Positions 8,548-48,265 of a DNA stretch of 64,000 bases are shown here, one piece after another. Location of the stretch: the NCBI GenBank assembly GCA_041482115.1, contig JBGPDC010000003.1, forward strand, positions 4,695 through 68,694. The letters are read 5' to 3'. The DNA comes from Terriglobia bacterium (GTDB taxonomy: Bacteria > Acidobacteriota > Terriglobia > Bryobacterales > JACQDG01). How positions within the stretch are numbered: the stretch's first letter is position 1; each line of letters opens with the position of its first letter. Position numbers and translations under genes: made by a program. The notes under the pieces are model-generated. The model did not search any database. It saw nothing but the letters and a program-made list of their open reading frames with translations, and was not told the DNA's origin.

Positions 8548-10569
<2,022 letters not shown>

Positions 10570-28123: not shown

Positions 28124-28209
28124 CTTCTTAGTCGTCACAGGATCGCCGCGCTCATCTGGCGGGACTCTTGCGCCCGGATACTGCTGTCCTGGCGACTCGG
28201 AGGTATGTC

Positions 28210-28653
28210 TTGCGCACGCCGCGATTGCCGTTGTTTTGTAAGCGTCGCGGGCAGGCTCTGATCGAGGCAAGCCTGATGATGCCCATGCTGTTCTTCCTGT
28301 TTTTGGGTATGACGAATTTCGGGTTTTATATTTACGCGTTCATCGAGGTGGGCAACGCGGCGCGTGTGGCGGCGCAATTTACGGCGAACGGGCTAGGTGG
28401 CAACCAGGCAGCAGCGTGCCAGGCGGCCCTTCGCGAACTCAAGAGTATGCCGAACGTGTATACCTTAGCTGACAACTATGCGTGCGGCGCCAATCCCCTA
28501 ACCGTGACGGTGGTGCCCCCGACCGACCCGGACCCGGGGGTAAGCAAGACGTGGGTGCAGGTCAGTTACCAGACGATCAAGTTGTTTCCGCTGCCTTTCA
28601 TGTCGGGGCAGATGATCATCAACCGCCATGCGGTCATGCGGACCATGAACTAA
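28210..28653 (+). CDS. tadE: TadE-like pseudopilin 1
   Basis: ...KRRGQALIEASLMMPMLFFLFLG is the TadE/TadG N-terminal motif (G followed by xxxxE plus a hydrophobic helix). TTG at 28210 lies 6 nt after GGAGG. The track start at 28168 is an alternative. Confidence 0.75.
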   Translation: MRTPRLPLFCKRRGQALIEASLMMPMLFFLFLGMTNFGFYIYAFIEVGNAARVAAQFTANGLGGNQAAACQAALRELKSMPNVYTLADNYACGANPLTVTVVPPTDPDPGVSKTWVQVSYQTIKLFPLPFMSGQMIINRHAVMRTMN

Positions 28654-28663
28654 GTCAAGGGCG

Positions 28664-29212
28664 ATGAAGGACCAGGCGAACGGCAAACGCGGGCAGCAAC
28701 GAGGGAACGCTAACGTGGAGTTTGCGCTGTGCGCGATCTTCATTATTTTCCTGATGATCTCGATGGTGGACATGGCGCGGGGTCTGTGGATTTACCATAC
28801 GCTGGCGGAAACAGTACGCGATGGGACACGCGCCTCGATTGTGCGCGGCAGCCGGTATGCGAACCCAAACACCAAGGTCCGGATGACGGATACCAAGCTG
28901 GCGGACACTCTCAGCGTGATGCGGAAATTCGCCATTGGGCTCGACTCCGCTGTCTTGGACGTGGTGTTCGAGACGGTCAACCCCAACACCGGGGTGGCTA
29001 CAACTTACGCTACCTGCAAGGCGAATGGAACTGGTTGCGCTGCGACCCAACCCTGGCCGCCGGACGCGTTCGACACGGCCGGCCAGGTCATTGGCATAAC
29101 GGCACGCTATCCATACAACTCCATGGTGGTGATGTATTTCCCAGGGATGAAAGGTGTGCAATTTGGCAAGTACGTGCTCGGCAGCACGTCGCGGGCAAGC
29201 ATTGTTTTTTAG
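28664..29212 (+). CDS. TadE-like pseudopilin 2 (TadE/TadF class)
   Basis: ...QRGNANVEFALCAIFIIFLMISMVD is a TadE-like N-terminal motif. Confidence 0.75.
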   Translation: MKDQANGKRGQQRGNANVEFALCAIFIIFLMISMVDMARGLWIYHTLAETVRDGTRASIVRGSRYANPNTKVRMTDTKLADTLSVMRKFAIGLDSAVLDVVFETVNPNTGVATTYATCKANGTGCAATQPWPPDAFDTAGQVIGITARYPYNSMVVMYFPGMKGVQFGKYVLGSTSRASIVF

Positions 29213-29240
29213 GCGGAGGGCCTCAGTGGAGGAAGCTGCC

Positions 29241-31070: not shown

Positions 31071-32741
31071 ATGACCCAAGGCGCCACAATCCGGTCCCGG
31101 CTGTTTCCGTCGCTGAGCGACGTGGTGTTCTGCACCACGCTGCTGCTGCTGTTCCTCATGGCGGAAGGGGCGACGTCGCTGCTGAAGGATTCGGACACCG
31201 GCTGGCACATCCGGACCGGTCAGTGGATCCTGCAGCACCACGCTGTGCCGAGGCAGGACCTATTCTCGTTCAGCAAGCCCGGCGAGCCGTGGTTTGCCTG
31301 GGAGTGGGGGAGCGACGTGCTCTTCGCGCTGGTGCACCAGTACGCGGGTCTGGCGGGCGTGGCGCTGCTGGCGGGCGTGGTGATCGCGCTGCTCTACGCG
31401 CTGCTCTACCGGCTGATGCTCCGCCAGGGGGTCAACCTGGTGGTGGCCTTGCCCCTGGTGATGCTGGCCAGCTATGCCGGGTCGATCCACTGGCTGGCGC
31501 GGCCGCACATGTTTAGCTGGCTCTTTGGATTGCTCTTCTACTGGGTGCTGCTCGAGGTCCCGGTGGAACAGCCGCGCGTGTTCTGGCTGGTCCCGCTGAC
31601 GGCGTTATGGACCAACCTGCACGGGAGCTTCGTGCTGGGCCTGGTGCTGATCGCGGTATTCGCGGCGGGCGAGGTGGTGCGGGCGGCGGTCACGTCCGGC
31701 CAGGAGAGCGGGAACAGCCGGCGCGAGGCGCTGGGGCGGGCGGGCCGGTATGGCCTGCTGCTGGCGGCCTGCGCCGCAGCGAGCCTGGTGAACCCGTATT
31801 TCTTCCGGGTCCACCTGCACATCTTCAAGTACTTGCAGGACGACTACATCCTGAATCACATCGGCGAATTCTTCTCGCCGAACTTCCGGTTTACGCCGGC
31901 GAAGTTCTTCGAGGTCCTGCTGGTGCTGGGGGGTGGGGCGGCGGTGTGGGCGGTGCGGCGCGGGCGGTACGCGCAGGCGCTGCTGGTGGTGGCGTTCACC
32001 CACTTCAGCCTGCAATCCGCGCGGCACATTCCGCTCTATGCGATTTTCGTCGCGCCGGTGATCGGGGGCGCGCTCACCGAGGCGCTGGAGGCGGCGAAGA
32101 ATTCGGTGGGCCTTTCCGGCTGGCTGCGCTCCACGCTGGTGGGTTTCAAGAAGTTCGGCGACGATAATCGGCCCCTCGACTTGCGGCCGCGCGTCTATGC
32201 GCTGTCGGTCGTGGTTACGATTTTTACCTGCGCGCTGGTGATTCTCTCCACGCAGGCGGGGCGTCCTAAGGAGCTGCGGGCGCAGTTCAATCCCCAGCAA
32301 TTTCCCGCGCGGGCGGCCGATTACCTGGCCCTCTCCGGTCCGGATACGGATATCTTCACCACCGACCAGTGGGCCAGCTACCTGATTTACCGGTTCTATC
32401 CCCGGGTGCGGGTCTTTATGGACGGGCGGAGCGATTACTACGGCGCCGCGGTGGGCAACCTGTATCTGAACGTGATCGGCGTGCAGTACACGTGGGAAAA
32501 GACGCTGGACGACTACCGGGTTCGCACCGTGCTGCTGCCGGCCTCCGAGGGGCTGGCCGGGGCGATGAAGGAATCCCGCCGCTGGCACGTGGACTACGAC
32601 GACGGCATAGCGATTTTGTTTTCGCGCACTGCGGAAGGACCGGCGCAACTGGCCGCCAACCGCGCGGACGACCGGACGAAGGAAGTCCGGCCAACTCTCA
32701 ACCCGGCGACGGCGTCTGGGGAGGCGCCGGACCGGCCCTAG
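31071..32741 (+). CDS. Polytopic (about 12+ TM) membrane protein, GT-C-fold glycosyltransferase-like, embedded in the tad operon
   Basis: Starts 3 nt after the tadG stop. Multi-TM protein with an acidic first-loop motif (LLKDSDTGWHIRTGQWIL...DLFSFSKPGEPWFAWEWG) and a roughly 170-aa soluble C-terminal domain. Assigned from architecture and motifs, not from a search. Confidence 0.5.
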   Translation: MTQGATIRSRLFPSLSDVVFCTTLLLLFLMAEGATSLLKDSDTGWHIRTGQWILQHHAVPRQDLFSFSKPGEPWFAWEWGSDVLFALVHQYAGLAGVALLAGVVIALLYALLYRLMLRQGVNLVVALPLVMLASYAGSIHWLARPHMFSWLFGLLFYWVLLEVPVEQPRVFWLVPLTALWTNLHGSFVLGLVLIAVFAAGEVVRAAVTSGQESGNSRREALGRAGRYGLLLAACAAASLVNPYFFRVHLHIFKYLQDDYILNHIGEFFSPNFRFTPAKFFEVLLVLGGGAAVWAVRRGRYAQALLVVAFTHFSLQSARHIPLYAIFVAPVIGGALTEALEAAKNSVGLSGWLRSTLVGFKKFGDDNRPLDLRPRVYALSVVVTIFTCALVILSTQAGRPKELRAQFNPQQFPARAADYLALSGPDTDIFTTDQWASYLIYRFYPRVRVFMDGRSDYYGAAVGNLYLNVIGVQYTWEKTLDDYRVRTVLLPASEGLAGAMKESRRWHVDYDDGIAILFSRTAEGPAQLAANRADDRTKEVRPTLNPATASGEAPDRP

Positions 32742-32772
32742 TTTTTTGATTTCGGTCAGTGAGGAGAATACT

Positions 32773-32964
32773 GTGAAGTTTTTCGCGCTAACTCGGAAGT
32801 TTCTAAAAGAAGAGGCGGGGCAGGACACGATGGAGTACACGCTGCTGCTGGGTTTTGTGGCCCTGGCGGCGGCGGCTATTTTCCCGATCGTCACCGACAG
32901 CATCAAGACGATCTGGAACGTGGCGAGCAACCACTTGTCCAACGCGGCCAAGGCGGCCTCTTAA
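32773..32964 (+). CDS. flp: Flp-family type IVb pilin, copy 1
   Basis: GTG at 32773 lies after GAGGAG. VKFFALTRKFLKEEAG/QDTMEYTLLLGFVALAAAAIFPIV... contains the Flp motif G-xxxxEY plus a hydrophobic helix. 63 aa. Confidence 0.85.
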   Translation: MKFFALTRKFLKEEAGQDTMEYTLLLGFVALAAAAIFPIVTDSIKTIWNVASNHLSNAAKAAS

Positions 32965-33137
32965 CGCCCGTGGTGGTGTTTTCGCGCGCTGCGGAAGGAC
33001 GGGCTCAACTGGCCGCCAACCGTAGCGCTTACGGCGGGACCCCCGCGGTCCAGCCAGCTTTCAACCCGGCGGCGGCGTCTGGGGAGGCGCCAGGCCGGCG
33101 GTAGTTTTCTGATTTCGGTCAGGGAGGAGAATCGGTT

Positions 33138-33329
33138 GTGAAGTTTATCGCGCTCACTCGAAAGTTTCTCAGAGATGAAGCTGGGCAAGACACGATGGAA
33201 TACACCCTGCTGCTGGGTTTTGTGGCCCTGGCGGCGGCGGCTATTTTCCCGATCGTCACCGACAGCATCAAGACGATCTGGAACGTGGCAAGCAACCACC
33301 TGTCGAATGCGGCTAAAGCGGCCGCCTAA
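33138..33329 (+). CDS. flp: Flp-family pilin, copy 2
   Basis: GTG start after GGGAGGAG. The predicted mature sequence is identical to copy 1 except for the last residue. Confidence 0.9.
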   Translation: MKFIALTRKFLRDEAGQDTMEYTLLLGFVALAAAAIFPIVTDSIKTIWNVASNHLSNAAKAAA

Positions 33330-33349
33330 CGCACCGGAAGGAGGTGGAC

Positions 33350-33541
33350 ATGTGGTTCTTGAAACGAACACGTGAGCTTCTCCAGCAGGAAGACGGGCAG
33401 GACACGATGGAATATACGCTGCTGCTGGCCTTTGTGGCTATGGCAGCAGCGGCTATCTTCCCCGTCGTTACGGACAGTATCAAGGTTATCTGGAACGTGA
33501 TGCGTAACCACCTGTCCAATACGGCCAAGGCGGCAAGCTAA
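33350..33541 (+). CDS. flp: Flp-family pilin, copy 3 (divergent)
   Basis: ATG at 33350 lies after GGAAGGAGG. MWFLKRTRELLQQEDG/QDTMEYTLLLAFVAMAAAAIFPVV.... About 6-7 substitutions in the mature part relative to the other copies. Confidence 0.85.
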   Translation: MWFLKRTRELLQQEDGQDTMEYTLLLAFVAMAAAAIFPVVTDSIKVIWNVMRNHLSNTAKAAS

Positions 33542-33649: not shown

Positions 33650-33844
33650 ATGACACGATTACTTGTACACGGCAAGCGTTTTCTCCGGCAAGAAGACGGA
33701 CAGGACACGATGGAATACACGCTGCTGCTGGGTTTTGTGGCCCTGGCGGCGGCGGCTATTTTCCCGATCGTCACCGACAGCATCAAGACGATCTGGAACG
33801 TGGCGAGCAACCATCTGTCGAACGCGGCTAAAGCGGCGGCCTAG
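33650..33844 (+). CDS. flp: Flp-family pilin, copy 4
   Basis: MTRLLVHGKRFLRQEDG/QDTMEYTLLLGFVALAAAAIFPIV.... The mature part is identical to copy 2, but the leader differs. Confidence 0.85.
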   Translation: MTRLLVHGKRFLRQEDGQDTMEYTLLLGFVALAAAAIFPIVTDSIKTIWNVASNHLSNAAKAAA

Positions 33845-34059: not shown

Positions 34060-34944
34060 ATGAACCGACGGTTAATGACCGTACTTGGGTTTGCATTTTT
34101 GGTGGCCCTGGGAGCGACGTTCCTGCTTTACGGGCTGATCGCGAGCCGGGTGCGGGGGAGCAATCAGCCGGTGGCGAACCAGCAGTTGATAGTCGCGGTT
34201 CGCGATTTGCAGCGCGGTGAGCTGATCAAAGATGCGGACCTCAAGACGGTAGCGTGGGGCTCTTCCGAATCGCCTAAAGGATCTTCTGCCGATCGCAATC
34301 TTCTCGTCGGGCGCGGCGTTATCAGCGAGATCGTCGCCGGCGAGCCTATCATCGACTCCCGGTTGGCGCCGAAGGATTCGGGCGCGGGCCTGGCGCCGGC
34401 GATTCCGATCGGCAAGCGGGCGGTCGCGCTCCGCGTCAACGATGTGGTGGGTGTCTCCGGCTACGTGCTGCCGGGCTCGCGCGTGGACGTGCTGATCACC
34501 GGCAATGCCCCCGGGCAGAACCCGCAAGGACCCGAGATCCGGACCATCCTCCAGAATGTGGAGGTGCTTTCGGCGGGCACGAACATCCAGCGCGACGCCG
34601 AGGGCAAGCCGATCCAGGTGCCGGTGATCACGGTGCTGGTGACGCCGGAAGACGCGGAAACGTTGAGCCTGGCGAGCAACGAGACGCGTATCCAACTGGT
34701 GCTGCGCAATCCGCTGGACGACCAGAAGGGGGAGTCGAAGGGCACCGCCGTGGGACGGCTGTTCAAGGGCGGGCCCGCGCCGGAAGACAAGGGGCCGCGG
34801 CGTCCGGCCGCGCCCAGGACGGTGGTGGTGAAGGCGCCGGAGCCCCCGCCGCCCCCGCCCCCCCCGCCGCCCATCGTGGTGGAACTGTTGAAGGGACCGA
34901 CGCGCAGCAGCCAGAATTTTGAGCCGGCGCCGGTAGCGCCGTAA
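34060..34944 (+). CDS. cpaB: Flp pilus assembly protein CpaB/RcpC
   Basis: N-terminal TM segment, SAF-like region (VAVRDLQRGELIKDADL), and RcpC beta-clip region (AVALRVNDVVGVSGYVLPGSRVDVL...VTVLVTPEDAETLSLA). Pro-rich tail. Confidence 0.9.
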   Translation: MNRRLMTVLGFAFLVALGATFLLYGLIASRVRGSNQPVANQQLIVAVRDLQRGELIKDADLKTVAWGSSESPKGSSADRNLLVGRGVISEIVAGEPIIDSRLAPKDSGAGLAPAIPIGKRAVALRVNDVVGVSGYVLPGSRVDVLITGNAPGQNPQGPEIRTILQNVEVLSAGTNIQRDAEGKPIQVPVITVLVTPEDAETLSLASNETRIQLVLRNPLDDQKGESKGTAVGRLFKGGPAPEDKGPRRPAAPRTVVVKAPEPPPPPPPPPPIVVELLKGPTRSSQNFEPAPVAP

Positions 34945-34983
34945 CGGACTGGGAGGCTGACGAGTGACGACAAGGAGCGCCGC

Positions 34984-36420
34984 GTGAGAAAGACGCGACT
35001 GGGATGGGCAGGGCTCGCACTTTTGATAGCTGTGGCAGTTCCCACGGCCGCTCGGGGCCAGGCGGCCGGGGAAACGCGGGAACTCTCCGTGCTGGCGGGC
35101 AAGTCGGTGATGATCGACTCGACCCCGGTGATCCAGCGCGTCTCAGTAGCCACGCCGGAGGTCGCCGACGCCATCGTGGTGAACCCGCACGAGGTCTTGA
35201 TCAACGGCCGCTCGGCGGGCGCCACCAGCCTGATCTTGTGGCAGGAAGGCGGCGGGCGTATTTTCTTCAACCTGGTGGTGAGGCTCGACTTGCAGCCGAC
35301 CCTGCAGCAGTTACAGGAGAGCTTTCCGGACGGCAACGTGCAGGCCACTTACGAGAACGGCACCTGGTTCCTGCGGGGAACCGTGCGCGATGCGACGGAG
35401 GCCGAGCGCGCCCAGGCCATCGTGGCCACCGCCGGAGGCGGAAGAGTCGTAAACCTGCTGCGGTTGCAGCCTCCGGCCGCCGAACCGCAGATCATGCTCA
35501 AGGTCCGCTTTGCCGACGTGGACCGGGCGGCGGTCCAGGACCTCGGGGTGAACCTCATCTCGAATGGGGCCCTGAATACGATCGGCACCATTCAGACCGG
35601 CCAGTTCGGCGCGATAACGCGGCCCAACGTCGGGGGCGCCACCGGCAGCGGCAACCAGCAGCCGTTCCTGGTGCAGGACCTGCTGAACATCTTCGCTTTT
35701 CGCCGCGACATCAACCTCGGCGCTACCATCCGCGCCTTGCAGCAGAAGCGGCTGCTGCAACTGCTGGCGGAGCCCAACCTGGTGACTTTGAACAACCGCG
35801 AGGCGAATTTCCTGGCGGGCGGCGAGTTCCCCTTCCCGGTAGTGCAGGGCGGGGCGGCGGCCGGGGCCGTCACCATCCAGTTCCGGGAGTTCGGCGTGCG
35901 GATCAACTTCCTGCCGAGCCTGACGCCCCGCAACACCATCCGGCTGCGGGTGCGGCCGGAGGTCAGCTCGCTCGATTTCAGCAACGCGATTACCATTTCC
36001 GGTTTCACCGTGCCGGCCATCTCCACGCGGCGGATCGATTCGGAGGTGGAACTGGCCGACGGACAAAGCTTCATTATCGGCGGCTTGCTCGACAACCGCA
36101 CGATTGAGTCGTTCACCAAGATTCCAGGGTTGGGGGACATCCCGATCCTGAAGAACCTGTTCCGGAGCCGGTCGGTGACCAAGAATAATTCGGAGCTGAT
36201 GGTGCTGGTGACGCTCGACCTGGTGCAGCCTTTCGAGGCCGGCCAGCCGCCGCCGCCTCCCAAGACCGACATGCCCTACCTGGAGATTCCGGGCCAGCAC
36301 CCGGTGACCAACCAGAAGGCCGCTGAGCCACTGGCGCCGCCCGCGCCCGCGCCGGCGCCCACGGCGGCCCCGGCGGCTCCGGCCCCGGCTCCGCCGCCGG
36401 CGCCAGGAGGTAACCGTTGA
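34984..36420 (+). CDS. cpaC: Tad secretin CpaC/RcpA
   Basis: Signal peptide, BON-like N-terminal domain and secretin core (LLAEPNLVTLNNREANFLAGGEFPFPV...GQSFIIGGLLDNR...IPGLGDIPILKNLFRS). GTG start after AAGGAG. Confidence 0.9.
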   Translation: MRKTRLGWAGLALLIAVAVPTAARGQAAGETRELSVLAGKSVMIDSTPVIQRVSVATPEVADAIVVNPHEVLINGRSAGATSLILWQEGGGRIFFNLVVRLDLQPTLQQLQESFPDGNVQATYENGTWFLRGTVRDATEAERAQAIVATAGGGRVVNLLRLQPPAAEPQIMLKVRFADVDRAAVQDLGVNLISNGALNTIGTIQTGQFGAITRPNVGGATGSGNQQPFLVQDLLNIFAFRRDINLGATIRALQQKRLLQLLAEPNLVTLNNREANFLAGGEFPFPVVQGGAAAGAVTIQFREFGVRINFLPSLTPRNTIRLRVRPEVSSLDFSNAITISGFTVPAISTRRIDSEVELADGQSFIIGGLLDNRTIESFTKIPGLGDIPILKNLFRSRSVTKNNSELMVLVTLDLVQPFEAGQPPPPPKTDMPYLEIPGQHPVTNQKAAEPLAPPAPAPAPTAAPAAPAPAPPPAPGGNR

Positions 36421-37583
36421 GACCCATTAGCGCCGCACTGGTCGTGGAGCGGCAGGCTTTCCGCACGCAGGTACTGGAGGAGTTGAAAGCCGCCCCAGTG
36501 CGGATCGTACTCGACCAGGGCGCTTTCGGCGCCTGGCAAGTCGTGCAGGAAAAGCTCCAGCGGCTGGCGCCGGACGTGGTGGTGGTGGACCTGTCGGATC
36601 AAACCGAAGACCGGTTTGAGTGCATCCGCCGGCTGCGGACGCTTTCTCAACCGCCCGCGGTAGTGGTGATCCACGATTCCGACGAGGCCGCGGTAATTCT
36701 GAAGGCCATGCGGGCTGGGGCGACGGAGTTCCTGACGGTGCCCCTGGAGGCCGGGAGTCTGCAGACGGCGCTCGATCGCATCGCCGCGCTGCTGCCGGGC
36801 CGGGAGGTCCACAGCGAGTCGGGAGGCCAGGTGCTGGCGTTTCTTTCGGTGAAGGGCGGGGCTGGCGCCACGACACTGGCTTGCGGAACGGCGGCCGTGC
36901 TCGGCAAGGGGGCCAGCCGGGAGGTCCTGCTCGCCGACCTCGATGTCGAAACCGGCAACGTGGCGTTCGCGATGAAGGCCAACTCGCACTACAGCATCCT
37001 GGACGCCTGTCGCAGTATCAGCCGGCTGGATGCGCACTACTGGAAGGGCATTATCTCGAACGGCCTGCCCGGCCTGCACATCCTGACGGCGCCGGCCGAC
37101 CCGCGGGCGATCGAGACCCCCCAGGGCGTGGAAGTGCGCCAGGTGCTGAACTTCGCGCGGACCCTCTACCCCTTCAGCGTCATTGACCTGCCGAGCCACC
37201 TCGGCCCGCTGACGCTGGCGGCGCTCGAGGACGCGGACCGGGCCTTCCTGATCACGACCACGGAACTACCCTCCCTGCACCTGGCCAAGCGGACCCTGCA
37301 GATGCTCTCCTTCCAGGGCTACCCCCAGCAGCGCCTGGCCCTGGTGCTCAATCGCGCTACGCGGCGGGATGAGGTGACCACGGAGGACATCGAGCGCAAC
37401 CTGGGCGTGCCGGTGTTCTGGCGGTTTCCCTTCGATGCGGAAGGCGTCAACGAGTTTTATGTGAAAGGCGGGACGATCGGGCCCAAGTCGGACCTGGGCC
37501 GGTCGATCCGCCAGTTTACGGAAAAGATCTCCGGCGCCCCGGCGCCCGCGGAGAAGACGAAGAAGTCGTTCCTAGGTATCTGA
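36417..37583 (+). CDS. cpaE: CpaE/TadZ: receiver-like N-domain fused to a MinD/ParA-type ATPase
   Basis: The TTG start overlaps the cpaC stop (TTGA) and lies after AGGAGG. Deviant Walker A VKGGAGATT. REC-like N-terminal part (VVVVDLSD...). Confidence 0.85.
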   Translation: MRPISAALVVERQAFRTQVLEELKAAPVRIVLDQGAFGAWQVVQEKLQRLAPDVVVVDLSDQTEDRFECIRRLRTLSQPPAVVVIHDSDEAAVILKAMRAGATEFLTVPLEAGSLQTALDRIAALLPGREVHSESGGQVLAFLSVKGGAGATTLACGTAAVLGKGASREVLLADLDVETGNVAFAMKANSHYSILDACRSISRLDAHYWKGIISNGLPGLHILTAPADPRAIETPQGVEVRQVLNFARTLYPFSVIDLPSHLGPLTLAALEDADRAFLITTTELPSLHLAKRTLQMLSFQGYPQQRLALVLNRATRRDEVTTEDIERNLGVPVFWRFPFDAEGVNEFYVKGGTIGPKSDLGRSIRQFTEKISGAPAPAEKTKKSFLGI

Positions 37584-37623
37584 CGACTGGGCAGTGGCGG
37601 GATGAAAACGCGAGGAGGCCATT

Positions 37624-38976
<1,353 letters not shown>

Positions 38977-38983
38977 AGGAGCT

Positions 38984-39952
38984 ATGTTTTCCACTCTGCT
39001 GGTTGTCGCGTTCCTGGTGGTGTTCGGCATGGTGCTGATCGCCGCCTCGCTCGCCTGGAATGTTACCGAAAGAAAGCGGCAGCGCGTGCTGGACAAGCGG
39101 CTGCAGCGCACGCTTGCCGAGATGACCGAGGTGGACACCGACCTCCTCAAGAAGAGCTCCGCCAGCGAGGTGGAGTTCTATGGCAAGCTGCTGGACCGAT
39201 TTTCGTTCACCGCGACCCTGCAGGATCAACTGGCGCAGGCCAACATGAAGTGGTCGGTGGGCTTCCTGGTCGGACTCATGCTGGTGAGCGGGCTTTTAGC
39301 TCTCAACATTCTGATGCGGGTCCGTTACGTGCCGGGCTACCTCGTTCCCCTGGGAGTGGCGGCGGTGGGGTTCCTGCCCTACTGGGTGGTGCTGCGGAAG
39401 CGTACCCGTCGCCTGGCCCAGTTCGAGGAGGAATTCCCGGAGGCGCTGGACTTTCTGGCGCGCGCCATGCGGGCCGGCCACGCCTTCTCCATCAGCCTGG
39501 AGCTGCTCTCGCAGGAGTCGCCCGACCCGCTGGCCACGGAGTTCCGGCAGGTGACGGAGGAGCACAATCTGGGCTTGCCGCTGGAGGCCTCGCTCGTGAA
39601 CCTGGCGCGGCGCGTGCCGCTGCTCGACGTGCGGTTCTTCGTCTCGGCGGTCATGCTCCAAAGCCGGACCGGCGGCAACCTCAGCGAGATCCTGATTAAG
39701 CTCGGCTACGTAATTCGCGAGCGGTTCAAGTTGAAGGGACAGGTCCGGGCGCTGAGCGCCCAAGGCCGCCTGACCGGCAAGTGCCTGGCGGTGATGCCGA
39801 TCGTCGTGGTCTTACTGATGATGGTTGTGAATGCCGAATACATGCGCGGACTGTTTGACTTCCCTTACGGCCGGCATCTTATCGGAGCGGCCGTCATCTT
39901 GCAGTGTCTGGCTTTTTACGTGATCCGCCGGATCGTCGACATTAAGGTGTGA
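38984..39952 (+). CDS. tadB: TadB inner-membrane platform protein (T2SSF domain)
   Basis: ATG at 38984 lies after GAGGAG. EEFPEALDFLARAMRAGHAFSISL is a T2SSF signature. 3-4 TM segments. Confidence 0.85.
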   Translation: MFSTLLVVAFLVVFGMVLIAASLAWNVTERKRQRVLDKRLQRTLAEMTEVDTDLLKKSSASEVEFYGKLLDRFSFTATLQDQLAQANMKWSVGFLVGLMLVSGLLALNILMRVRYVPGYLVPLGVAAVGFLPYWVVLRKRTRRLAQFEEEFPEALDFLARAMRAGHAFSISLELLSQESPDPLATEFRQVTEEHNLGLPLEASLVNLARRVPLLDVRFFVSAVMLQSRTGGNLSEILIKLGYVIRERFKLKGQVRALSAQGRLTGKCLAVMPIVVVLLMMVVNAEYMRGLFDFPYGRHLIGAAVILQCLAFYVIRRIVDIKV

Positions 39953-39959
39953 TGTCATC

Positions 39960-40895
39960 ATGCTGATGGTCATTATTGCGTTGTGGTTTGTGGCGGTGCT
40001 GGGCGCCATTTCGTGGGTCGGATACCGTTACTGGGTCAAGCCGGCGGCCTACCTGGACCGTGTCGGCGGCGAGGGCGGCGCAGTGGCCGTCGAACTCGAT
40101 GATCATGACCCGGCTCCCATGACCGGGGTCACCAGGATGATGCGGCAGGTAGGGGAGTCGGTTCCGACCAACCCCGGCGCCTTGCGCCAGAAGCGCAAGC
40201 TGCTCATCGCCGCGGGTTACCGCTCCGATTCGGCGGTGGCCGTGATGTACGGCCTCCAAATTGCCTGCGGAGTAATGCTGGGCCTGCTGACCGCCGTCGC
40301 CCTCACCAGCACCCGGGTCCTCTCGCCGCCGCAAGCCCTCGGGGCCGGTATCCTGGTCGGGCTGTTGGGCTACGCCCTGCCCAACGAGATTCTGCGCCTG
40401 CTGATTCAGCGGCGCCGGCAAATCTTGCGGCATTCCCTGCCCGACGCGCTCGACCTGCTGGTCATCTGCGTGGAATCCGGGCTGGGTCTGGATCAGGCGC
40501 TGCAAGAGGTTTCTCAGGAGCTGCTCTTAACTCACCGCGAGCTCAGCGAGGAGCTGGCGCTGGTGAACTACGAACTGCGCGCCGGCAGCCGGCGGTCCGA
40601 GGCGCTGCGCAATCTGGCCTCCCGGACCGGCGAAGGGGAGATCAAGAAGCTGGTGGCTATTCTGATCCAGACCGACCGCTTCGGCACCTCCATCGCCCAG
40701 GCGCTCCGGACCCACGCCGACTTCATGCGGGTGCGCAGGCGCCAGGTGGCCGAGGAAAAGGCCAACAAAGTGGGCGTCAAGCTCGTGTTTCCGATCTTCT
40801 TCTTCATTCTGCCTTCGATGTTCTTAGTGACGGTGGGCCCGTCGCTGCTCTACCTGTTGTTCGAGTTCCTGCCGAAGATGAAGCAGGGCTTGTAG
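39960..40895 (+). CDS. tadC: TadC inner-membrane platform protein (T2SSF domain)
   Basis: LPDALDLLVICVESGLGLDQAL is a T2SSF signature. TM segments at both ends. Confidence 0.85.
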   Translation: MLMVIIALWFVAVLGAISWVGYRYWVKPAAYLDRVGGEGGAVAVELDDHDPAPMTGVTRMMRQVGESVPTNPGALRQKRKLLIAAGYRSDSAVAVMYGLQIACGVMLGLLTAVALTSTRVLSPPQALGAGILVGLLGYALPNEILRLLIQRRRQILRHSLPDALDLLVICVESGLGLDQALQEVSQELLLTHRELSEELALVNYELRAGSRRSEALRNLASRTGEGEIKKLVAILIQTDRFGTSIAQALRTHADFMRVRRRQVAEEKANKVGVKLVFPIFFFILPSMFLVTVGPSLLYLLFEFLPKMKQGL

Positions 40896-41157: not shown

Positions 41158-42282
41158 GTGGCACCAGGAAGTGTAGTGCGCCCGCGGTCCGTCGCGGCAT
41201 TAACCTGGGTTGCGGCTGGGCTCTTGGCTGGCTTCTGGCTCGGGGCCATCTTTGGGGCGGCCGCTCGCACCGGCGACCCGGGCGACTTCTCGGCGTTCTA
41301 TGGCGGAGCTAGAGTGCTGCGGACCGTAGGACCCCGGGCCCTCTACGATTTTCCCGCCATGGAACGGATCACCCGGGCGTCCTTTCCCGGCCCCTACGCC
41401 GTTCTTCCTTTCATTCGGCCTCCTTTCTACGCCCTGCTGCTCCAGCCGCTGGCGGTGTTACCGCCTCACGCGGCACTACTTGCTTGGCTGGTGTTGAATG
41501 CCGCGGCCTTGCTCGGGAGCGTCTTTCTCCTGGCCGGCGTCACCGGCCGGGAGGCGCCGGTAGTTGCCTGGCACGCGGCGATCTTCTTTCCGGCCCTGGC
41601 CGCCTTTTTCAACCGGCAGGACGTGCCGCTACTGCTGCTGGCCGCTACCCTGGCCTATCGGCTGTTGAACCGTGGCCGGCCGTTCGCTGCCGGCTTGGCG
41701 CTGGCCGCCTGCACCGTCAAGTTTCACCTCGGGCTGTTGCTCCCGCTTGTCCTGGTGGTCCAGCGGAGTTGGAGGCTGCTAGCTGGCCTCGCGGCGGGAG
41801 CGGGTGTCGCCCTGGCGCTGTCCTTGCTCTTGGTAGGCCCCAGTGGCTGCTGGGGGTATGTCCGGATGCTCTTCGAGCGCACGGCGCCCAATATCGAAAA
41901 CTATCCCGAGCGGCAAGCGAACCTCTCCAGTGTGGCGCGCGACTCGGGCCTGGAAATTCCGCTGGTGCTGCTCACTGCCGCGGCGGCCGCCGCCGCCGGC
42001 CGGCGGCTCCAGGCTCGCGAAGCGCTCGCGGCCGGCTGGCTGGGATCCCTGGCCATCGCGCCGCACGCGGTGATCTCTGACTACCTCCTGGCCCTTCCGG
42101 CCCTGCTGCTGCTGGCCCCGCTCGGGCGCGCCTGCTTTGTGCCTGGCGTGCTGCTACTTTTTCCAGTGGTTCCCCTGCTGCTGGTATGGGACGAGCGACT
42201 GATCGGATTGGCCCCCTTGCTGGCCCTCGCTTGCCTGCTGGGGGCGGTGATCCACGGCAGTTCGCGCCGGAGTGAAGTGTGA
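41158..42282 (+). CDS. GT87/DUF2029-like polytopic membrane glycosyltransferase
   Basis: Multi-TM protein. N-terminal loop GDFSAFYGGARVL...LYDF parallels the paralogues at 13852 and 45552. Confidence 0.55.
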   Translation: MAPGSVVRPRSVAALTWVAAGLLAGFWLGAIFGAAARTGDPGDFSAFYGGARVLRTVGPRALYDFPAMERITRASFPGPYAVLPFIRPPFYALLLQPLAVLPPHAALLAWLVLNAAALLGSVFLLAGVTGREAPVVAWHAAIFFPALAAFFNRQDVPLLLLAATLAYRLLNRGRPFAAGLALAACTVKFHLGLLLPLVLVVQRSWRLLAGLAAGAGVALALSLLLVGPSGCWGYVRMLFERTAPNIENYPERQANLSSVARDSGLEIPLVLLTAAAAAAAGRRLQAREALAAGWLGSLAIAPHAVISDYLLALPALLLLAPLGRACFVPGVLLLFPVVPLLLVWDERLIGLAPLLALACLLGAVIHGSSRRSEV

Positions 42283-43652
42283 AGCGCGCGGCGGCGCCAC
42301 CTCTCTCGACGCGACGGGCGGGCATCCTGATATTCATCGCCTGCCTGTTGCTCTATAACCTGAACCACCAATACCGAGGCACAGCCGACACGGCGCCCAA
42401 TGTCTACCTGCCGATCAGCATCCTGCTCCACGGCGACCTGTACCTGGACCGCTACCCCACCCTCCCTGGAACCCAGCCCGGGCCGCCCTATCCTTACTAC
42501 CTCCAGCCGTTTCACGGCCGGTTGATCTCCTCCTTCCCACCCACCCCGGCGTTGGTGGCTCTGCCCGTCTACCTGGTGCCGGCGCTGTGGCTCCGCGCCT
42601 CTCACACCCCTTACACCAGTGAAACTTTTTATCTCGTCTGCGTCACCGCGGCCAAACTGGCGGCGGCGGTGATCGCGGCAGCCGCCGTGGTGGTGGTGTT
42701 TCTGACGCTCGCGCCGCCGCTCGGCGTACCGCGGGCGCTGCCCCTCGCGCTGCTCTTTGCCTTTGGCACCTCGGCATTTCCAATTGTGAGTCAGGGGCTG
42801 TGGAGTCACGGGCCGGCGATGTTGTTTCTGGCGGGGGCCGCCTACCTGTCGTTGCATCAGCCCCAGCGGGTCGCGGCGCTTGGAACTCTGCTCGGCCTGG
42901 CCGTGGCCTCTCGCCCGCCGGCAGTGGTTCCGGCGATAGTCTTTGCCGCCTGTGCCGCCGCGCGAGACCCTCGACGCCTGTTGCAACTCCTAGGGGCCCC
43001 GCTTCTGATCGCAACCGGACTCGCAGCCTACAACTACCATTTCTTCGGCTCGGTTAGCGGCGGATATGAGCAGGTGAACCGCGCCGTCCTGGAGCGCCAG
43101 CAACTGACCGCCTTGTGGACCGTTAACCCCGGCCCAGCTCTGGCCGGTCTGCTCGTCAGTCCCAGCCGCGGCCTGCTGATTTTCTCGCCCTTTGCAGTGG
43201 CTGCCTTCGCCGGTCTCTGGCGGACTCTGCGCGACCCGCGCTGGTCGGAGTGGAAGCCAGTGGGACTCTCCGTAGCCGGCTACCTGCTGTTCTTCAGCTT
43301 CTATACCGGCTGGTGGGGCGGCATGTGTTACGGGCCGCGCTACCTCACCGACGTTTCTCCCTTCCTGGTGCTGTTGCTCGTCCCCGTCTGGCAGGATCTG
43401 CAGGCCGTCCGCTGGCGGCGGCTGGGATTTCATCTTTTGGTTTGGACCAGCATCTTCATCCAGACCCTGGGCGCCATGATGTGGGACGGGGAGTGGTACA
43501 TCCGGCCCACTCACGTAGACGTCGATCACGCCCGGCTGTGGGATTGGAAGGATTCCGAGATCACGCGGCTCCTCCGGAATTATCGCTGGTCGCAGACCTC
43601 TTCCCAGGTGCCGGCCTTCGGCGGGCCCTCGCCGGATCAATCTCGTGAGTAG
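42279..43652 (+). CDS. Polytopic membrane protein, GT-C-like (weak assignment)
   Basis: 4-bp overlap with the upstream gene. More than 10 hydrophobic segments with an N-terminal loop (GTADTAPNVYLPISILLHGDLYLD). No soluble catalytic domain. Confidence 0.45.
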   Translation: MKRAAAPPLSTRRAGILIFIACLLLYNLNHQYRGTADTAPNVYLPISILLHGDLYLDRYPTLPGTQPGPPYPYYLQPFHGRLISSFPPTPALVALPVYLVPALWLRASHTPYTSETFYLVCVTAAKLAAAVIAAAAVVVVFLTLAPPLGVPRALPLALLFAFGTSAFPIVSQGLWSHGPAMLFLAGAAYLSLHQPQRVAALGTLLGLAVASRPPAVVPAIVFAACAAARDPRRLLQLLGAPLLIATGLAAYNYHFFGSVSGGYEQVNRAVLERQQLTALWTVNPGPALAGLLVSPSRGLLIFSPFAVAAFAGLWRTLRDPRWSEWKPVGLSVAGYLLFFSFYTGWWGGMCYGPRYLTDVSPFLVLLLVPVWQDLQAVRWRRLGFHLLVWTSIFIQTLGAMMWDGEWYIRPTHVDVDHARLWDWKDSEITRLLRNYRWSQTSSQVPAFGGPSPDQSRE

Positions 43653-43655
43653 GCG

Positions 43656-45449
43656 GTGCTGACCAATCCAGTGGCGGCTCCCTTGCCGCCCGCCGTTCAC
43701 GCGCCGCCGGGCACCGGCCGCGGCGATATCCTGGCGCGGGCCGCGATCGTCGTGGCGTGGCTGCTGCTCGGGTGCCTGACCTGGGGACACTGGGGGGAAG
43801 TGGCCCGCTACGACACCGGTCGCGAGATGTACGTGCCCTACGCGATGCTGCAGGGCAAGGCGCTCTATAAAGACCTGTGGTACACCTATGGCCCCCTCGC
43901 TCCCTGCTGGAATGCGCTGTTGTTCGCCGTGTTCGGCAGTCGGCTGGAGGTGCTTTACGCTTCCGGGCTGACGCAGGCCCTGGCTTTCGCGCTGCTGCTC
44001 TATGCCATCGCGCGGCGGTTTCTGCCGGTAGCGGCCGCGTCGCTGGCGGCCGGCTGCTTTCTGCTGCAGGCTTTCCAGCCCGACCTCTTCAACTTCGCGC
44101 TGCCCTACGCGCACGCCGCCACGCTGGGGGCCCTGTTCAGTCTTTGCACGCTCTACGGTTTGGTCCGTCACGTCCTGCGGGAGCCGGGGCCGAATCTGGC
44201 GGCGGCCGGGATGGCGGCCGGCCTGGCCCTGCTCACCAAGCAGGAGTTCGGGGCGGCGTGTTATTTGATCCTGGGCTTTGTGCTGGTCCTCGAGGCCCGC
44301 AGTCAGCGCTCCGCCGGCCGGTTGTTCGGGGGCCTGTGGCGCTGCCTGCCGGGCCTGCTGGTCAACGTCGCCGTGTATGGCTGGCTCGCCTGGCGGCTGA
44401 CGCCGGCCGCCTTGTTTCTCGACAATCTCAACACGCCGTGGTCCTATCACATGCGCGCGGCAGGAATGCCATGGCTGGCGCGCAACGGCTTCCGCTTTCA
44501 GCCCCAGGAGATGCTGGCCGCTGCGTTTAGCGGGCTGATCTCTCTGGCCTTGTGGTTCCTCGTGGCGGCGCTCCTCGAGCGCCTGCTCGCCTGGCGCGGG
44601 ACCTTGCCGGTGGCGGGCCTGTCGGTGATCGCCTTCGGGACCGCCGCTCATCTGAAGGACTGGCCTCTGGCCGGTGCTCTCTTTTTAGGGGTCCCGCTGC
44701 TGTTCTTCCCGATGGGCCTGCCGTGGCTGGCGGCGGGCTTGCTCGCGGTGTCGCTGTTGGAGTGGCGGCGCGACCACCACCCCCGCCACCTGGCAATTGC
44801 GGTGCTGTGCCTCTACGCCCTGGCGATCGGCCTGCGGGTTCTGTTTCTCACGCTGCCTGTCTACTATGGCGTCTATCACAGTCAGGCGTTGTTCCTCGTC
44901 TTCCTCATTCTGCTCACCCGTTTGACGGGCCACATGGGCCGGGCCTTTCCGGCTATCCTGGTACTCGAAGCGGCCGGACTGCTGGCGGCCGTGGCTCCGC
45001 GCCCCTCCAGCCTGCCCGCGCCCCTTCACACCGCGCGCGGCACGATTTACGCTGGTTCCTCCGAGGCGGCGGTTTACAAGCCGCTTCTCGCTTTCCTCGC
45101 GGAGCAACAAGCTCACGGCCGGACGTTCGTCGTGCTGCCGCAAGAGGTATCGCTCTACTTTTTCACCGGAACGCTGGCGCCCAGCCGCTGGTTCGGGCTG
45201 ACCCCTGGCACCCTAGCCCCCGAGGCGCGACAGCAAGACTACATCGCGGATCTCGAACGGTACAACGCCGACTTCATCGTCGTCTCCAACCGTGACACCA
45301 AGGAGTACGGCCTGCCCTACTTCGGCCTCGACTACGACCGCGCGGTCTATGCCTGGATCCTGCAGCATTACGAGCCCGCGGGAGAATTCGGACGCTTCGT
45401 CCGCGACGTTCCGGGCGCTTACGGCGTGCGCATCTATCGCCGGCGATGA
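43656..45449 (+). CDS. Polytopic membrane protein, GT-C (ArnT/PMT-like) with C-terminal soluble domain
   Basis: Starts 3 nt after the upstream stop. First-loop motif YDTGREMYVPYAMLQGKALYKDLWYTYGPL, many TM segments and a roughly 130-aa C-terminal non-membrane domain. Confidence 0.5.
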   Translation: MLTNPVAAPLPPAVHAPPGTGRGDILARAAIVVAWLLLGCLTWGHWGEVARYDTGREMYVPYAMLQGKALYKDLWYTYGPLAPCWNALLFAVFGSRLEVLYASGLTQALAFALLLYAIARRFLPVAAASLAAGCFLLQAFQPDLFNFALPYAHAATLGALFSLCTLYGLVRHVLREPGPNLAAAGMAAGLALLTKQEFGAACYLILGFVLVLEARSQRSAGRLFGGLWRCLPGLLVNVAVYGWLAWRLTPAALFLDNLNTPWSYHMRAAGMPWLARNGFRFQPQEMLAAAFSGLISLALWFLVAALLERLLAWRGTLPVAGLSVIAFGTAAHLKDWPLAGALFLGVPLLFFPMGLPWLAAGLLAVSLLEWRRDHHPRHLAIAVLCLYALAIGLRVLFLTLPVYYGVYHSQALFLVFLILLTRLTGHMGRAFPAILVLEAAGLLAAVAPRPSSLPAPLHTARGTIYAGSSEAAVYKPLLAFLAEQQAHGRTFVVLPQEVSLYFFTGTLAPSRWFGLTPGTLAPEARQQDYIADLERYNADFIVVSNRDTKEYGLPYFGLDYDRAVYAWILQHYEPAGEFGRFVRDVPGAYGVRIYRRR

Positions 45450-45551
45450 CCATCGCCGTGAGCCTAGCCGGACGCCGCCTATACTGACGTGTTGCGCCTT
45501 CACTAACGCGAGAGGGTCACCTCTCTAGCGCGACTCAGCTACACTAAGAAC

Positions 45552-46685
45552 TTGCACGCAGAGGGAGTCGAGGCTTCTCCGGCATATTTGCGACCTCCAC
45601 CTCGGAGAGCCAGTCGGGCCCTGTGGGCGGTATGCTTGGTGGCCTTTCTGGCTTTTGCCTCCCTCTGGGCCTCTCACGCCCGGACGTACCGGGAAATGGG
45701 CTGGGACTTCACGATGTTTTACGTCGCCTCCCATCTTCCCGCGGGCCAGCTCTACAACCGGACGGCTTATCTGGAAACGGCGGAGCGCCTTCTGGGTGGC
45801 TCCGAGGTCAAATACTTCCCTCCTTACATCCGGCTCGCCATCTTCGCGCTGCCCTTGAGGCCCCTGGGCTGGTTTTCTTACAAGAATGCTTTTCTCATTT
45901 GGACCGCCATCCAATTTGGCTGTTATCTCGCAAGTCTGTTCCTGCTGCGGTCGATCTACCCTTTCCCCCCCGAGGCGCTCCTCGGTTGGGCGCTATTCTA
46001 TCCTTCCATGCATGGCATCTGGCAAGGACACGACGAATCCGCCCTGCTGCTGCTGGTTGTCGTGGCTTTCTTTCTCTTGAAATCCGGCCGCGAAAAGCTG
46101 GCGGGCGTCCTGTTCGCTCTCTGCGCCTACAAGTTTAATTTGTTCGTTCTTATCCCCCTTTATCTCCTGATCCGGCGGCAATGGCAGGCCCTGGGGTATG
46201 GGATCGGAACCACGGCGATCCTGGTCGGTGTTTCTTTCTCCCTCCAATCCCCCCGGACCTACTTCGATTATCTGAAGCGTGTGCCCGAGATGAGCATTAA
46301 CTTTGATCCCGCCTCTATTACCAGCCTGCGAGGCCTGACACTGGGGCACCCCTGGCTATACGGGGTCACCGTAGTGGCGGTCGTGCTTCTGGCGTTATGG
46401 GCGATATCGGTGACGGACGAAACTTCCGGATTCGCCATAGCCATAACCGGCTCCTTGCTGATCGCCTACTATACGTTCTATTACGATCTGACGCTGCTCG
46501 CCATTCCCATTATGGTGATCCTGGCGAAAGGGGGGCGGTGGTCCAGGATAGCTCCATTAACCTTGCTGGTAGGCGTACCCTTATGGTTCGGTCCGCCGCG
46601 CTATATGGCTATCCTGGTGGTGGCGCTCTTGGGAGGCCTCGTGTGTTTGGCACCGTCCGGACCTGACGCGAAGGAATCGTCGTAA
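45552..46685 (+). CDS. GT87/DUF2029-like polytopic membrane glycosyltransferase
   Basis: WDFTMFYVASHLPAGQLYN motif. Multi-TM protein. The TTG start is uncertain. Confidence 0.55.
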   Translation: MHAEGVEASPAYLRPPPRRASRALWAVCLVAFLAFASLWASHARTYREMGWDFTMFYVASHLPAGQLYNRTAYLETAERLLGGSEVKYFPPYIRLAIFALPLRPLGWFSYKNAFLIWTAIQFGCYLASLFLLRSIYPFPPEALLGWALFYPSMHGIWQGHDESALLLLVVVAFFLLKSGREKLAGVLFALCAYKFNLFVLIPLYLLIRRQWQALGYGIGTTAILVGVSFSLQSPRTYFDYLKRVPEMSINFDPASITSLRGLTLGHPWLYGVTVVAVVLLALWAISVTDETSGFAIAITGSLLIAYYTFYYDLTLLAIPIMVILAKGGRWSRIAPLTLLVGVPLWFGPPRYMAILVVALLGGLVCLAPSGPDAKESS

Positions 46686-48265
46686 TGGGCGGCCCCGCCT
46701 CGCGCGAGGGAGCGGCTCTCCCGTGGAATACAGACGCGGATCCCGACGAAAAATGGCTTTACTCGCTAGCTATCCTCTTTGGCATTGGCCTGCGGGTCTT
46801 TCGATTCTGGGGACCCAGCCTCTGGCTGGACGAATTGAGCACCGCGTGGGTGGCTACTGCGCACGGCTGGGAGGCGCTATGGCAGCGGTGCCTGCTGGCG
46901 CACCAGCCTCCTATCTATTTCCTGGTCGTCAAGGCATTCTTACTTCTCGGCCACAATGAGCTTTTTCTCCGGCTGCCCACTATCATCTTCGGACTGGCCT
47001 CTCTGGCGGCTCTGGTAGTGACTATGCGCCGCGTGTTAGGGACGCGCGCGGCCCTGTACGGGGGCGCCCTCTATGCGCTGAACTCCCGGGGTATCTACCA
47101 CGGCCAGGAAGCTCGGATGTACGCCCTGGCTTGGTTTGTTACTCTCGTTTCGATCTATTTCTTCGTCTCATTGTTTGAAGATAGCCAGAGGTGGCGGTGG
47201 CTGGGGTACGCGGCCGCGACCCTGACCGTTTGTTACATCCACATCATCTACATTTGCGTCTTAGTGGGTCAGACCATCGTCGTTCTGTGTTTCTATTATG
47301 TGCTCCAACGCCGTACTCCTATTCTGCGCCGCCTCCTCTGGACCCAAATGACGTTGTTCCTTCTTGCCGCTCCGCTCACGCCCCTGTTGTTTGCCACTGC
47401 GACTGCCAGCAGAGCTTTGGGAAGCTTTATGTCCAAGCCGAACGTAGGCGGATTTTTATACCTCCTTACGTATCCGGAAACTGGCGCAGCGGCAGCCCTC
47501 TTCGTTTTGATTCTTGTCAGGATCTGGGGCCGGCGTCAGGCCTTCGTGGCCCTGACGGAACCAGAGACGGCTTTGGTGGGCGTCGGGATCGTGTATGCCG
47601 CCATGCTTCCTTGTGCTGCGGTGTTAGCCGCCGCCGGTATCGTGAACATTCTGGAGGGAAGATACCTGCTGTTGCCACTCCTCGGCGCTATTATCTCCGC
47701 GGCTTTCGTTGTAGCCAGGGCGAATGACCGCGTACTTCGGCGCGGACTGTGGACGTTTGTCCTGCTGACCGCCATCCTGCAAGGGGCCATCGCGGCGCAG
47801 ATCGGACCCTGGGTTGGAATGCCACGGGAGGACTGGCGCGGCGCTATCGGCTGGATCGGGGAGCGTTATCGAGAAGGCGATCTCATTCTGATGCGTTCGG
47901 GTTTGATCGAGGCGAAGTATCTCTCCCTGGACCTTCCCCAGAATCGGGAATACCTGGGGTTGCCATTGGCCGGCTTCTATGGCCCCGGCGGGCTGAATGT
48001 TGTCAATCTACCGTGGACGGCTGAGGAACTGAACTCGGGCCCGTACCTCCGCGCCTCTCTGCGGGAGAGGATGGGCCGGGCCAGGCAGATCATTGTGGTG
48101 CTGAACTCCCAAACGGTTCCTTGGAGCTGGACGGTATTCGAACAGTGGCTCCAGGAATCCGGCCGCCGGCCCGGATCGAGCGAGAAACGCCAATTTCAGG
48201 TTCTGGAGGTTCGCGTCTATCGCAGTCCGGAGAGCCAATCTGGGGTCTCTGTACCAGCCATGTAG
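46685..48265 (+). CDS. GT39/PMT_2-like (ArnT-type) GT-C membrane glycosyltransferase
   Basis: 1-nt overlap with the upstream stop. SLWLDELSTAWVA acidic first-loop motif, multi-TM region and C-terminal soluble domain. Confidence 0.6.
   Translation: MGGPASREGAALPWNTDADPDEKWLYSLAILFGIGLRVFRFWGPSLWLDELSTAWVATAHGWEALWQRCLLAHQPPIYFLVVKAFLLLGHNELFLRLPTIIFGLASLAALVVTMRRVLGTRAALYGGALYALNSRGIYHGQEARMYALAWFVTLVSIYFFVSLFEDSQRWRWLGYAAATLTVCYIHIIYICVLVGQTIVVLCFYYVLQRRTPILRRLLWTQMTLFLLAAPLTPLLFATATASRALGSFMSKPNVGGFLYLLTYPETGAAAALFVLILVRIWGRRQAFVALTEPETALVGVGIVYAAMLPCAAVLAAAGIVNILEGRYLLLPLLGAIISAAFVVARANDRVLRRGLWTFVLLTAILQGAIAAQIGPWVGMPREDWRGAIGWIGERYREGDLILMRSGLIEAKYLSLDLPQNREYLGLPLAGFYGPGGLNVVNLPWTAEELNSGPYLRASLRERMGRARQIIVVLNSQTVPWSWTVFEQWLQESGRRPGSSEKRQFQVLEVRVYRSPESQSGVSVPAM

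Follow-up and report, generated by a model that had tools for sequence, protein, structure and literature searches.

What does a polytopic membrane protein of no recognised family do inside a tad operon, between a pseudopilin gene and the pilin genes? The question is raised by a 64,000-nt stretch of DNA from a Terriglobia bacterium (GCA_041482115.1, contig JBGPDC010000003.1, positions 4,695 to 68,694, forward strand; hereafter the window), in which the open reading frame (ORF) at 31071..32741 (+ strand, ATG start), given the working name gene X, encodes a 556-aa polytopic membrane protein with a predicted glycosyltransferase class C (GT-C) fold. Tad/Flp pili, organelles of adhesion and biofilm formation, are widespread, and X is a fixed member of the tad operon of the Bryobacterales, at its pilin end. 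The best explanation of the modelling is that X is a GT-C glycosyltransferase of the inner membrane, with a predicted activity, and that its sequence family had not been annotated before. By analogy with TfpW, a pilin-modifying enzyme of Pseudomonas aeruginosa, the reading that we favour, and in which our confidence is evenly divided, is that this family is a new one within GT-C and that its Tad-linked clade glycosylates the periplasmic tail of the pilin Flp.

Gene X and its junctions

The tadG-like ORF upstream of gene X (29154-31067, + strand; 637 aa, with a TadG-type N-terminus and a match to Pfam Tad, PF13400, at E 5.9e-8) ends with a TAG at 31065-31067, which only the three nucleotides 'cca' separate from the gene X start. 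Downstream, the ORF of the first pilin gene, flp1, opens at a TTG at 32746, and its alternative GTG at 32773 lies 31 nt past the gene X stop. Both spacings, and the strand, agree with the initial annotation of the locus. Because its G+C content at third codon positions (0.88) resembles that of the neighbouring genes, and because more than 4,300 homologues are found in the database, gene X is taken as confirmed to be a real gene.

Predicted fold and conserved residues

Searches of Pfam and NCBIfam with gene X yielded no family match, and against PDB sequences both phmmer and a 44-sequence profile (at E <= 10) came back empty. When all 44 aligned members were compared with Pfam at E <= 5, the sole match was to PMT_2 (E 0.016), in one of the 44, and hhalign of the X family profile against the PMT_2 proteins and unknown membrane proteins of the window gave a probability below 1%.

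Structural comparison was more informative. An AlphaFold2 model built on the 44-sequence alignment (40-69% identity) reached a predicted local distance difference test score (pLDDT) of 88.2 and a predicted template-modelling score (pTM) of 0.87, and its top 22 Foldseek matches in the PDB were all GT-C enzymes, namely STT3, AftA, AglB, DPY19, PglB and ArnT (E 2.5e-7 to 7e-3, probability 1.0, TMq 0.40-0.59). The best match of the whole protein was to STT3 (8age_A; E 2.5e-7, TMq 0.59), yeast and human STT3 both being matched; the AftA was mycobacterial. The C-terminal domain, modelled separately (pLDDT 81), had as its top match the globular domain of AglB-S2 (3vu0; probability 1.0, TMq 0.60-0.64, root-mean-square deviation 3.8-4.6 Å), albeit at modest significance (E 1.3e-3), with the luminal domain of DPY19 and the periplasmic domain of ArnT ranking after it.

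Could X nevertheless be a transporter, or some other unrelated membrane protein, with its likeness to GT-C enzymes an artefact of modelling? That X has no sequence-level match to any glycosyltransferase family would fit such a view. However, the model is of high confidence, every significant fold match is to a GT-C protein, and the independent search with the C-terminal domain led to GT-C enzymes again. The structures of MFS, ABC and pyrophosphatase proteins, in contrast, matched weakly (probability <= 0.15, TM-scores ~0.1), and on these values we rejected a transporter identity; we consider an artefact of this kind most improbable. The comparison, which could have pointed to a transporter, thus bore out the GT-C-like character that had been proposed at the outset, and the model makes it highly probable that gene X encodes a GT-C enzyme.

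From hydropathy and the positive-inside rule, X is predicted to start in the cytoplasm, to cross the membrane with 11 transmembrane (TM) helices, within the 8-13 of a GT-C_A-type fold, and to place its C-terminal domain in the periplasm. The alignment contains 51 invariant columns, whose predicted distribution is strongly one-sided: 44 are assigned to the periplasmic domain or to loops on that side of the membrane and six to TM helices, whereas the cytoplasmic side has just one, in the short N-terminus, its five internal loops having none. The acidic first-loop motif pointed out in the initial annotation (KDSDTGWHIRTG...DLFSFSKPGEPWFAWEWG, residues 39-80) proved to be the most conserved stretch across the 44 sequences. 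This first periplasmic loop, which is putatively catalytic (residues 38-80; 31182..31310, + strand), has 16 invariant columns and carries the motifs D40-x-D42-T-G-W-H-x-R, D63-x-F-S and W74-x-A-W-E-W. Residues D42, T43, G44, H46, R48, G50, W52, D63, F65, S66, W74 and A76-W79 (E78 included) are invariant, and at least 90% of the sequences keep D40. The four acids D40, D42, D63 and E78 are housed in a predicted periplasmic loop spanning residues 32-91, with the DxD 9-11 residues past TM1; in GT-C enzymes such as PglB, STT3, ArnT and PMT, this position just past TM1 is the usual one of the catalytic or metal-binding acids. A conserved His/Arg belt is formed by H46, R48, H140, R144, H146, H184, H248, H250, H311 and R318.

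The soluble C-terminal domain that had been suspected from the sequence corresponds, from its own model and from conservation, to a folded periplasmic alpha/beta domain with high pLDDT (residues ~394-523; 32250..32639, + strand), whose invariants are D432-x-W434-x-x-Y437 and F449-x-D-G-R-S-D-x-Y-G458. It is followed by a disordered, weakly conserved tail (residues 524-556 which, with the stop codon, occupy 32640..32741, + strand; pLDDT < 50). One outlier of the X family, P0182 (917 aa), ends in ~200 aa of tetratricopeptide (TPR) repeats, an architecture known from TfpW and the eukaryotic TMTC-type GT-C enzymes.

Linkage of gene X to tad operons

To what extent is the position of gene X shared by other genomes? 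We surveyed one genome per GTDB species, of which at least 582 species representatives encode an X relative, and analysed the best 80 loci, all from Bryobacterales or Acidobacteriota metagenome-assembled genomes (a few with discordant bin labels), calling neighbours by mapping the window proteins onto them. The genes rcpC-secretin-tadZ-tadA lie downstream of X in 79 of the 80 loci, the remaining one ending 240 nt after X, and 77 of the 79 informative loci have one to three canonical flp genes in the interval from X to rcpC. It is on these two linkages that we describe X as fixed at the pilin end of the operon, and they show homologues to lie beside pilin genes, the association which the initial annotation had singled out as worth checking.

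The genes upstream of X are less constant. A 60%-identical relative has the order tadE-tadE-tadG-X-flp x3-rcpC-secretin-tadZABC-GT87, while relatives at 43% identity have no tadEFG at that site and are arranged PilZ-X-flp-rcpC-...-tadC. Overall, tadE/F/G adjoin X in about one-quarter of loci, sometimes on the opposite strand, and since this adjacency is variable, the kept junction is X-flp-rcpC. A tadV gene lies directly upstream of X in L024, L038, L046, L047 and L086, directly after X in L089, and between flp and rcpC in two loci; as tadV flanks X in several clades, X clusters with pilin maturation genes. L050 and L057 are also among the loci where tadV accompanies the X region. Where a genome contains two tad loci, both include an X (L008/L054, L021/L077).

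Does this linkage reveal which Tad protein X might serve? One possibility is that X is a Tad-tied GT-C enzyme whose acceptor is a periplasm-exposed protein other than Flp, either one of the TadE/TadF/TadG pseudopilins or RcpC. The 3-nt gap between tadG and X in the window would suit such an acceptor, as would the loci L088, L089 and L092, in which X precedes tadV or rcpC with no canonical flp, and older work on Aggregatibacter actinomycetemcomitans tied RcpC to Flp glycosylation (PMC12307814). However, both the sporadic adjacency of tadE/F/G, on either strand, and the near-constant X-flp junction speak against it, and we judge a pseudopilin or RcpC acceptor to be unlikely.

The strict co-occurrence of X with tadZABC in Bryobacterales could also be read as the mark of an inactive GT-C-fold scaffold in the Tad inner-membrane platform, much as PIG-U serves in glycosylphosphatidylinositol (GPI) transamidase, subunits of which are found among the weaker Foldseek matches of X (9ub7_B, 8imx_U). 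The invariant DxD, the His/Arg belt and the periplasm-facing invariants are, however, what would be expected of an active site, and to our knowledge the Tad systems of other phyla function without an X-like protein. A scaffold role for X therefore seems very unlikely.

Beyond these loci, a profile search of 1.84 billion representative proteins recovered 33,192 clusters (defined at 50% identity) at E <= 1e-3 and 7,785 at E <= 1e-30, so that the X family is far larger than its Tad-linked group. Three of six sampled distant relatives head tad operons, in the arrangements X, small ORF, rcpC (L088), X-tadV-rcpC (L089) and X-rcpC (L092). Put cautiously, the X family includes a large clade that is dedicated to the Tad system and, in Bryobacteraceae, joined to flp. 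A functional tie between X and the Tad pilus is, in our view, likely.

Several variations on the arrangement were seen. In the commonest Bryobacterales layout a small PilZ gene (132-133 aa) directly precedes X (L004 7595-7993, L005 510-908, L006 7595-7996), and upstream of the PilZ-X pair is a divergent GerE/LuxR-type regulator; the PilZ gene hints at control of the operon by cyclic di-GMP. In Paludibaculum-type loci a small conserved peptide, WRLPxG(E/Q)xLxxFALxxGF, either follows X (L088 8671-8904) or is fused to it (L089 ~8650-8935), and its sequence looks like a degenerate Flp leader and N-terminus minus the hydrophobic helix. Other genomes have a tandem pair of X genes upstream of flp (P0014; L059 2626-5768). 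Finally, P0112 is an in-frame X-Flp read-through protein of 618 aa. We set this fusion aside as unreliable evidence, as it comes from a single 2.2-kb metagenomic contig and probably reflects a lost stop codon or a sequencing error.

Flp as the candidate acceptor

Is Flp a plausible substrate? Type IV prepilins are inserted in the inner membrane, the leader on the cytoplasmic side and the C-terminal portion on the periplasmic side. As mature Flp has 47 residues, only ~20 of them are exposed at the periplasmic surface, and this segment coincides with the side on which the GT-C active site is predicted to lie. Residue counts were made over 106 unique Flp sequences, all of them X-linked. The processing site G/QD[LT][IVM]EY is invariant and gives a mature N-terminus of Gln-Asp, the Gln of which could cyclize to pyroglutamate; Q1, D2, E5 and Y6 are invariant, and W32 is conserved in 95%. 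The tails are rich in Ser/Thr, which occupy position 27 in 83% of sequences and positions 33 and 37 in ~65%, and the C-terminal residue is Ser in 85 of the 106 (80%). An N-x-S/T sequon, in contrast, occurs in 28% of the 106 and in none of the four Flp copies of the window. Because the sequon is rare and the tails are Ser/Thr-rich, the sequences favour O-glycosylation of Flp Ser/Thr, which we would expect to draw on a polyprenyl-phosphate-linked donor, with Ser27 and the C-terminal Ser as possible sites. N-glycosylation by an oligosaccharyltransferase-like enzyme was discarded as a default, given that X has no WWDYG and that so few of the linked Flp carry a sequon. Whether Flp is the acceptor is, on this evidence, finely balanced.

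If Flp is the acceptor, X would take a sugar or oligosaccharide linked to polyprenyl phosphate at the periplasmic face of the membrane, using its acidic first loop (D40-x-D42, D63, E78) and the invariant His/Arg belt. The glycan would then be passed to the short C-terminal stretch of Flp that projects into the periplasm. This would happen before TadABC polymerises the pilin, when it is still an inner-membrane protein, and the AglB-like C-terminal domain of X would hold the acceptor.

A different proposal is that X acts on a non-protein acceptor, such as an exopolysaccharide, a lipid or a lipopolysaccharide-type molecule, that is co-expressed with Tad pili for adhesion, so that the linkage would be regulatory and not enzymatic. 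The structural relatives of X do include enzymes of lipids and polysaccharides (ArnT, AftA), and the family is very large, with paralogues that have no tad linkage. Moreover, five membrane glycosyltransferase-type genes directly follow tadC in the window (41158..48265, + strand; in order GT87, unknown (457 aa), PMT_2, GT87 and PMT_2), several with stop and start codons that overlap or nearly abut. They form a possible accessory cluster. In the 60%-identical loci L001-L003 tadC is likewise followed by a GT87 gene, and in L057 and L090 such a gene stands upstream of X in divergent orientation. These GT-C-type genes and the recurring GT87 are compatible with the building of a periplasmic glycan, and a connection of theirs with X is possible. 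On the other hand, the gene is internal to the operon, with pseudopilin or tadV genes on one side and flp on the other, a separate X accompanies each tad locus, and the nearest structural matches of both domains (STT3, AglB, DPY19) modify proteins. We consider a non-protein acceptor rather unlikely.

To return to glycosylation of Flp by X, a number of observations weigh against it. The support for it is computational, and no sequence profile ties X to any characterised GT-C family (PMT_2, STT3, GT87 or ArnT-type). Three of the six distant relatives (L087, L090, L091) lack tad genes in the vicinity, although in L090 an orphan flp stands 1.7 kb away from X, which speaks for the linkage even outside a tad operon. 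No canonical flp is found beside X in the more distant Tad-linked relatives L067, L080, L088, L089 and L092, where the constant partner is the rcpC-tadZABC operon or tadV. As for the pilin itself, no Ser/Thr position is invariant among X-linked Flp, and two of the four window copies end in Ala. Genes for donor synthesis (a GT2-type polyprenyl-phosphate glycosyltransferase, a GtrA-type flippase, DprE1/E2) were not found in the window. Finally, the Tad pilin of Caulobacter crescentus also has a Ser/Thr-rich tail, yet its pilus is without glycan density (PMC10710030).

Comparison with known glycosyltransferases

How does X compare with enzymes already known to modify pilins? Its nearest functional analogue is TfpW of P. 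aeruginosa group IV, an arabinofuranosyltransferase of the GT-C type whose target for O-glycosylation is the type IVa pilin PilA. The two share a pilin-gene neighbour, ~11 TM helices, an acidic motif in loop 1 (in TfpW an essential DDX motif after TM1; bioRxiv 10.1101/2020.04.19.049825) and a periplasmic C-terminal domain, although the layout of X is predicted and the comparison is one of layout. The gene order differs: tfpW follows pilA in a type IVa setting, whereas X precedes flp in an operon of the Tad (type IVc) class. The C-terminal domain of X is small, alpha/beta and AglB-like and has no TPR match, TPRs being confined to the outlier P0182, and no D-arabinofuranose pathway genes accompany X in the window.

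The nearest structural relatives are the GT66 enzymes STT3, AglB and PglB, which give the best matches both for whole X and, at modest significance, for the C-terminal domain alone. Like X, they have an acidic DxD in external loop 1, and AglB is known to glycosylate the type IV pilins of archaea, to which Flp is related. X nevertheless differs from GT66 in several respects: it has DQWxxY and DGRSD(Y/F)YG in place of WWDYG, it has 11 predicted TM helices against 13, its second external loop (HWLARPH) is without an acidic residue, and its candidate acceptor has no conserved sequon. Because the STT3 profile match in Pfam, the WWDYG, the loop-2 acid and the acceptor sequon are all missing, we do not file X in GT66.

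Two further groups deserve mention. TfpO/PilO and PglL, which are Wzy_C or O-antigen-ligase-like enzymes, also modify pilins, and tfpO adjoins pilA. TfpO acts on the C-terminal Ser of its pilin, TfpW on internal Ser/Thr (bioRxiv 10.1101/2020.04.19.049825), and a C-terminal Ser is what most X-linked Flp possess. However, X is of a different family, with no Wzy_C match and no WaaL or PglL structure among its fold matches. ArnT, PMT and DPY19, which use polyprenyl-monophosphate monosaccharide donors, belong to the same fold class, and DPY19 and ArnT match both whole X and its C-terminal domain, but similarity at the level of sequence profiles is absent, the single PMT_2 match aside.

The tad operon around gene X

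The tad genes of the window are all on the + strand. Upstream of the tadG-like ORF lie a tadE-like gene (28168-28653) and a tadF/tadE-like gene (28664-29212), with Pfam TadE matches in the two genes at E 1.4e-9 and 2.2e-7. Downstream of X are four flp copies, all with the cleavage motif G/QDTMEY: copy 1 (32746..32964, probable start GTG 32773; mature pilin QDTMEY...NAAKAAS), copy 2 (33138..33329), copy 3, the most divergent (33344..33541), and copy 4 (33650..33844), the last three recognised from ORF, cleavage motif and alignment. They are followed by rcpC/cpaB, the secretin gene, tadZ, tadA, tadB and tadC (34060..40895; Pfam RcpC, Secretin, AAA_31/TadZ_N, T2SSE and two T2SSF). The operon is complete except that no tadV or Peptidase_A24 prepilin peptidase is encoded in the 64-kb window. 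X was considered as a substitute peptidase and ruled out, both by its GT-C fold and by the normal tadV that other loci have next to X.

The 3' end of gene X had been described as co-duplicated with flp, and here Tandem Repeats Finder and alignment agree. The former reports a 365-bp unit in 2.0 copies with 86% match (32617-33332), while the latter places between flp1 and flp2, upstream of the second copy (32977..33104, + strand), a degenerate repeat of the final ~125 nt of gene X together with the X-flp spacer. The ORF at 32970-33104 translates as ...FSRAAEGRAQLAANR...NPAAASGEAPGRR, to be compared with ...FSRTAEGPAQLAANR...NPATASGEAPDRP in the tail of gene X. The part of the gene that was duplicated specifies the disordered and unconserved tail of the protein.

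Just upstream of the tad genes are a TonB_C-domain protein with a ~250-aa low-complexity region rich in Gly/Ala/Ser/Pro (25971-27899, + strand) and, on the opposite strand, a small DUF5658 membrane ORF (25500-25808, - strand). Both are kept at the same place in L001 and L002.

Significance

The initial annotation held that an enzyme of this class had not been described in a Tad operon, and our full-text search of the literature, which did not cover all journals, likewise found no paper in which a glycosyltransferase is placed in a tad operon or given Flp as its substrate. What it did find on Flp glycosylation is a single old and unresolved observation in A. actinomycetemcomitans, tied to RcpC and with no enzyme identified (PMC12307814). 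X is probably the first candidate to be proposed as a dedicated sugar-adding enzyme of Tad pili. That GT-C glycosyltransferases can be encoded beside pilin genes is known; what is new in X is the sequence family and the Tad-class setting. We propose, tentatively and with somewhat less than even confidence, that X founds a new and very large GT-C family nearest to STT3/AglB, of which the Tad-linked clade is a dedicated type IVc pilin glycosyltransferase.

If confirmed, the principle of a glycosyltransferase gene beside the pilin gene, known for type IVa pili (TfpW, TfpO), would hold for type IVc pili too, with an added structural link to the archaeal and eukaryotic oligosaccharyltransferases. 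X defines a sequence-dark GT-C family of tens of thousands of members that are currently annotated as 'hypothetical', and a GT-C gene that is fixed in the tad operon throughout an order of Acidobacteria abundant in soil is a concrete candidate for genetics. Were the proposal true, X would supply the missing enzyme class for Flp glycosylation, and acidobacterial Tad pili would be glycosylated filaments, like the related pili of archaea.

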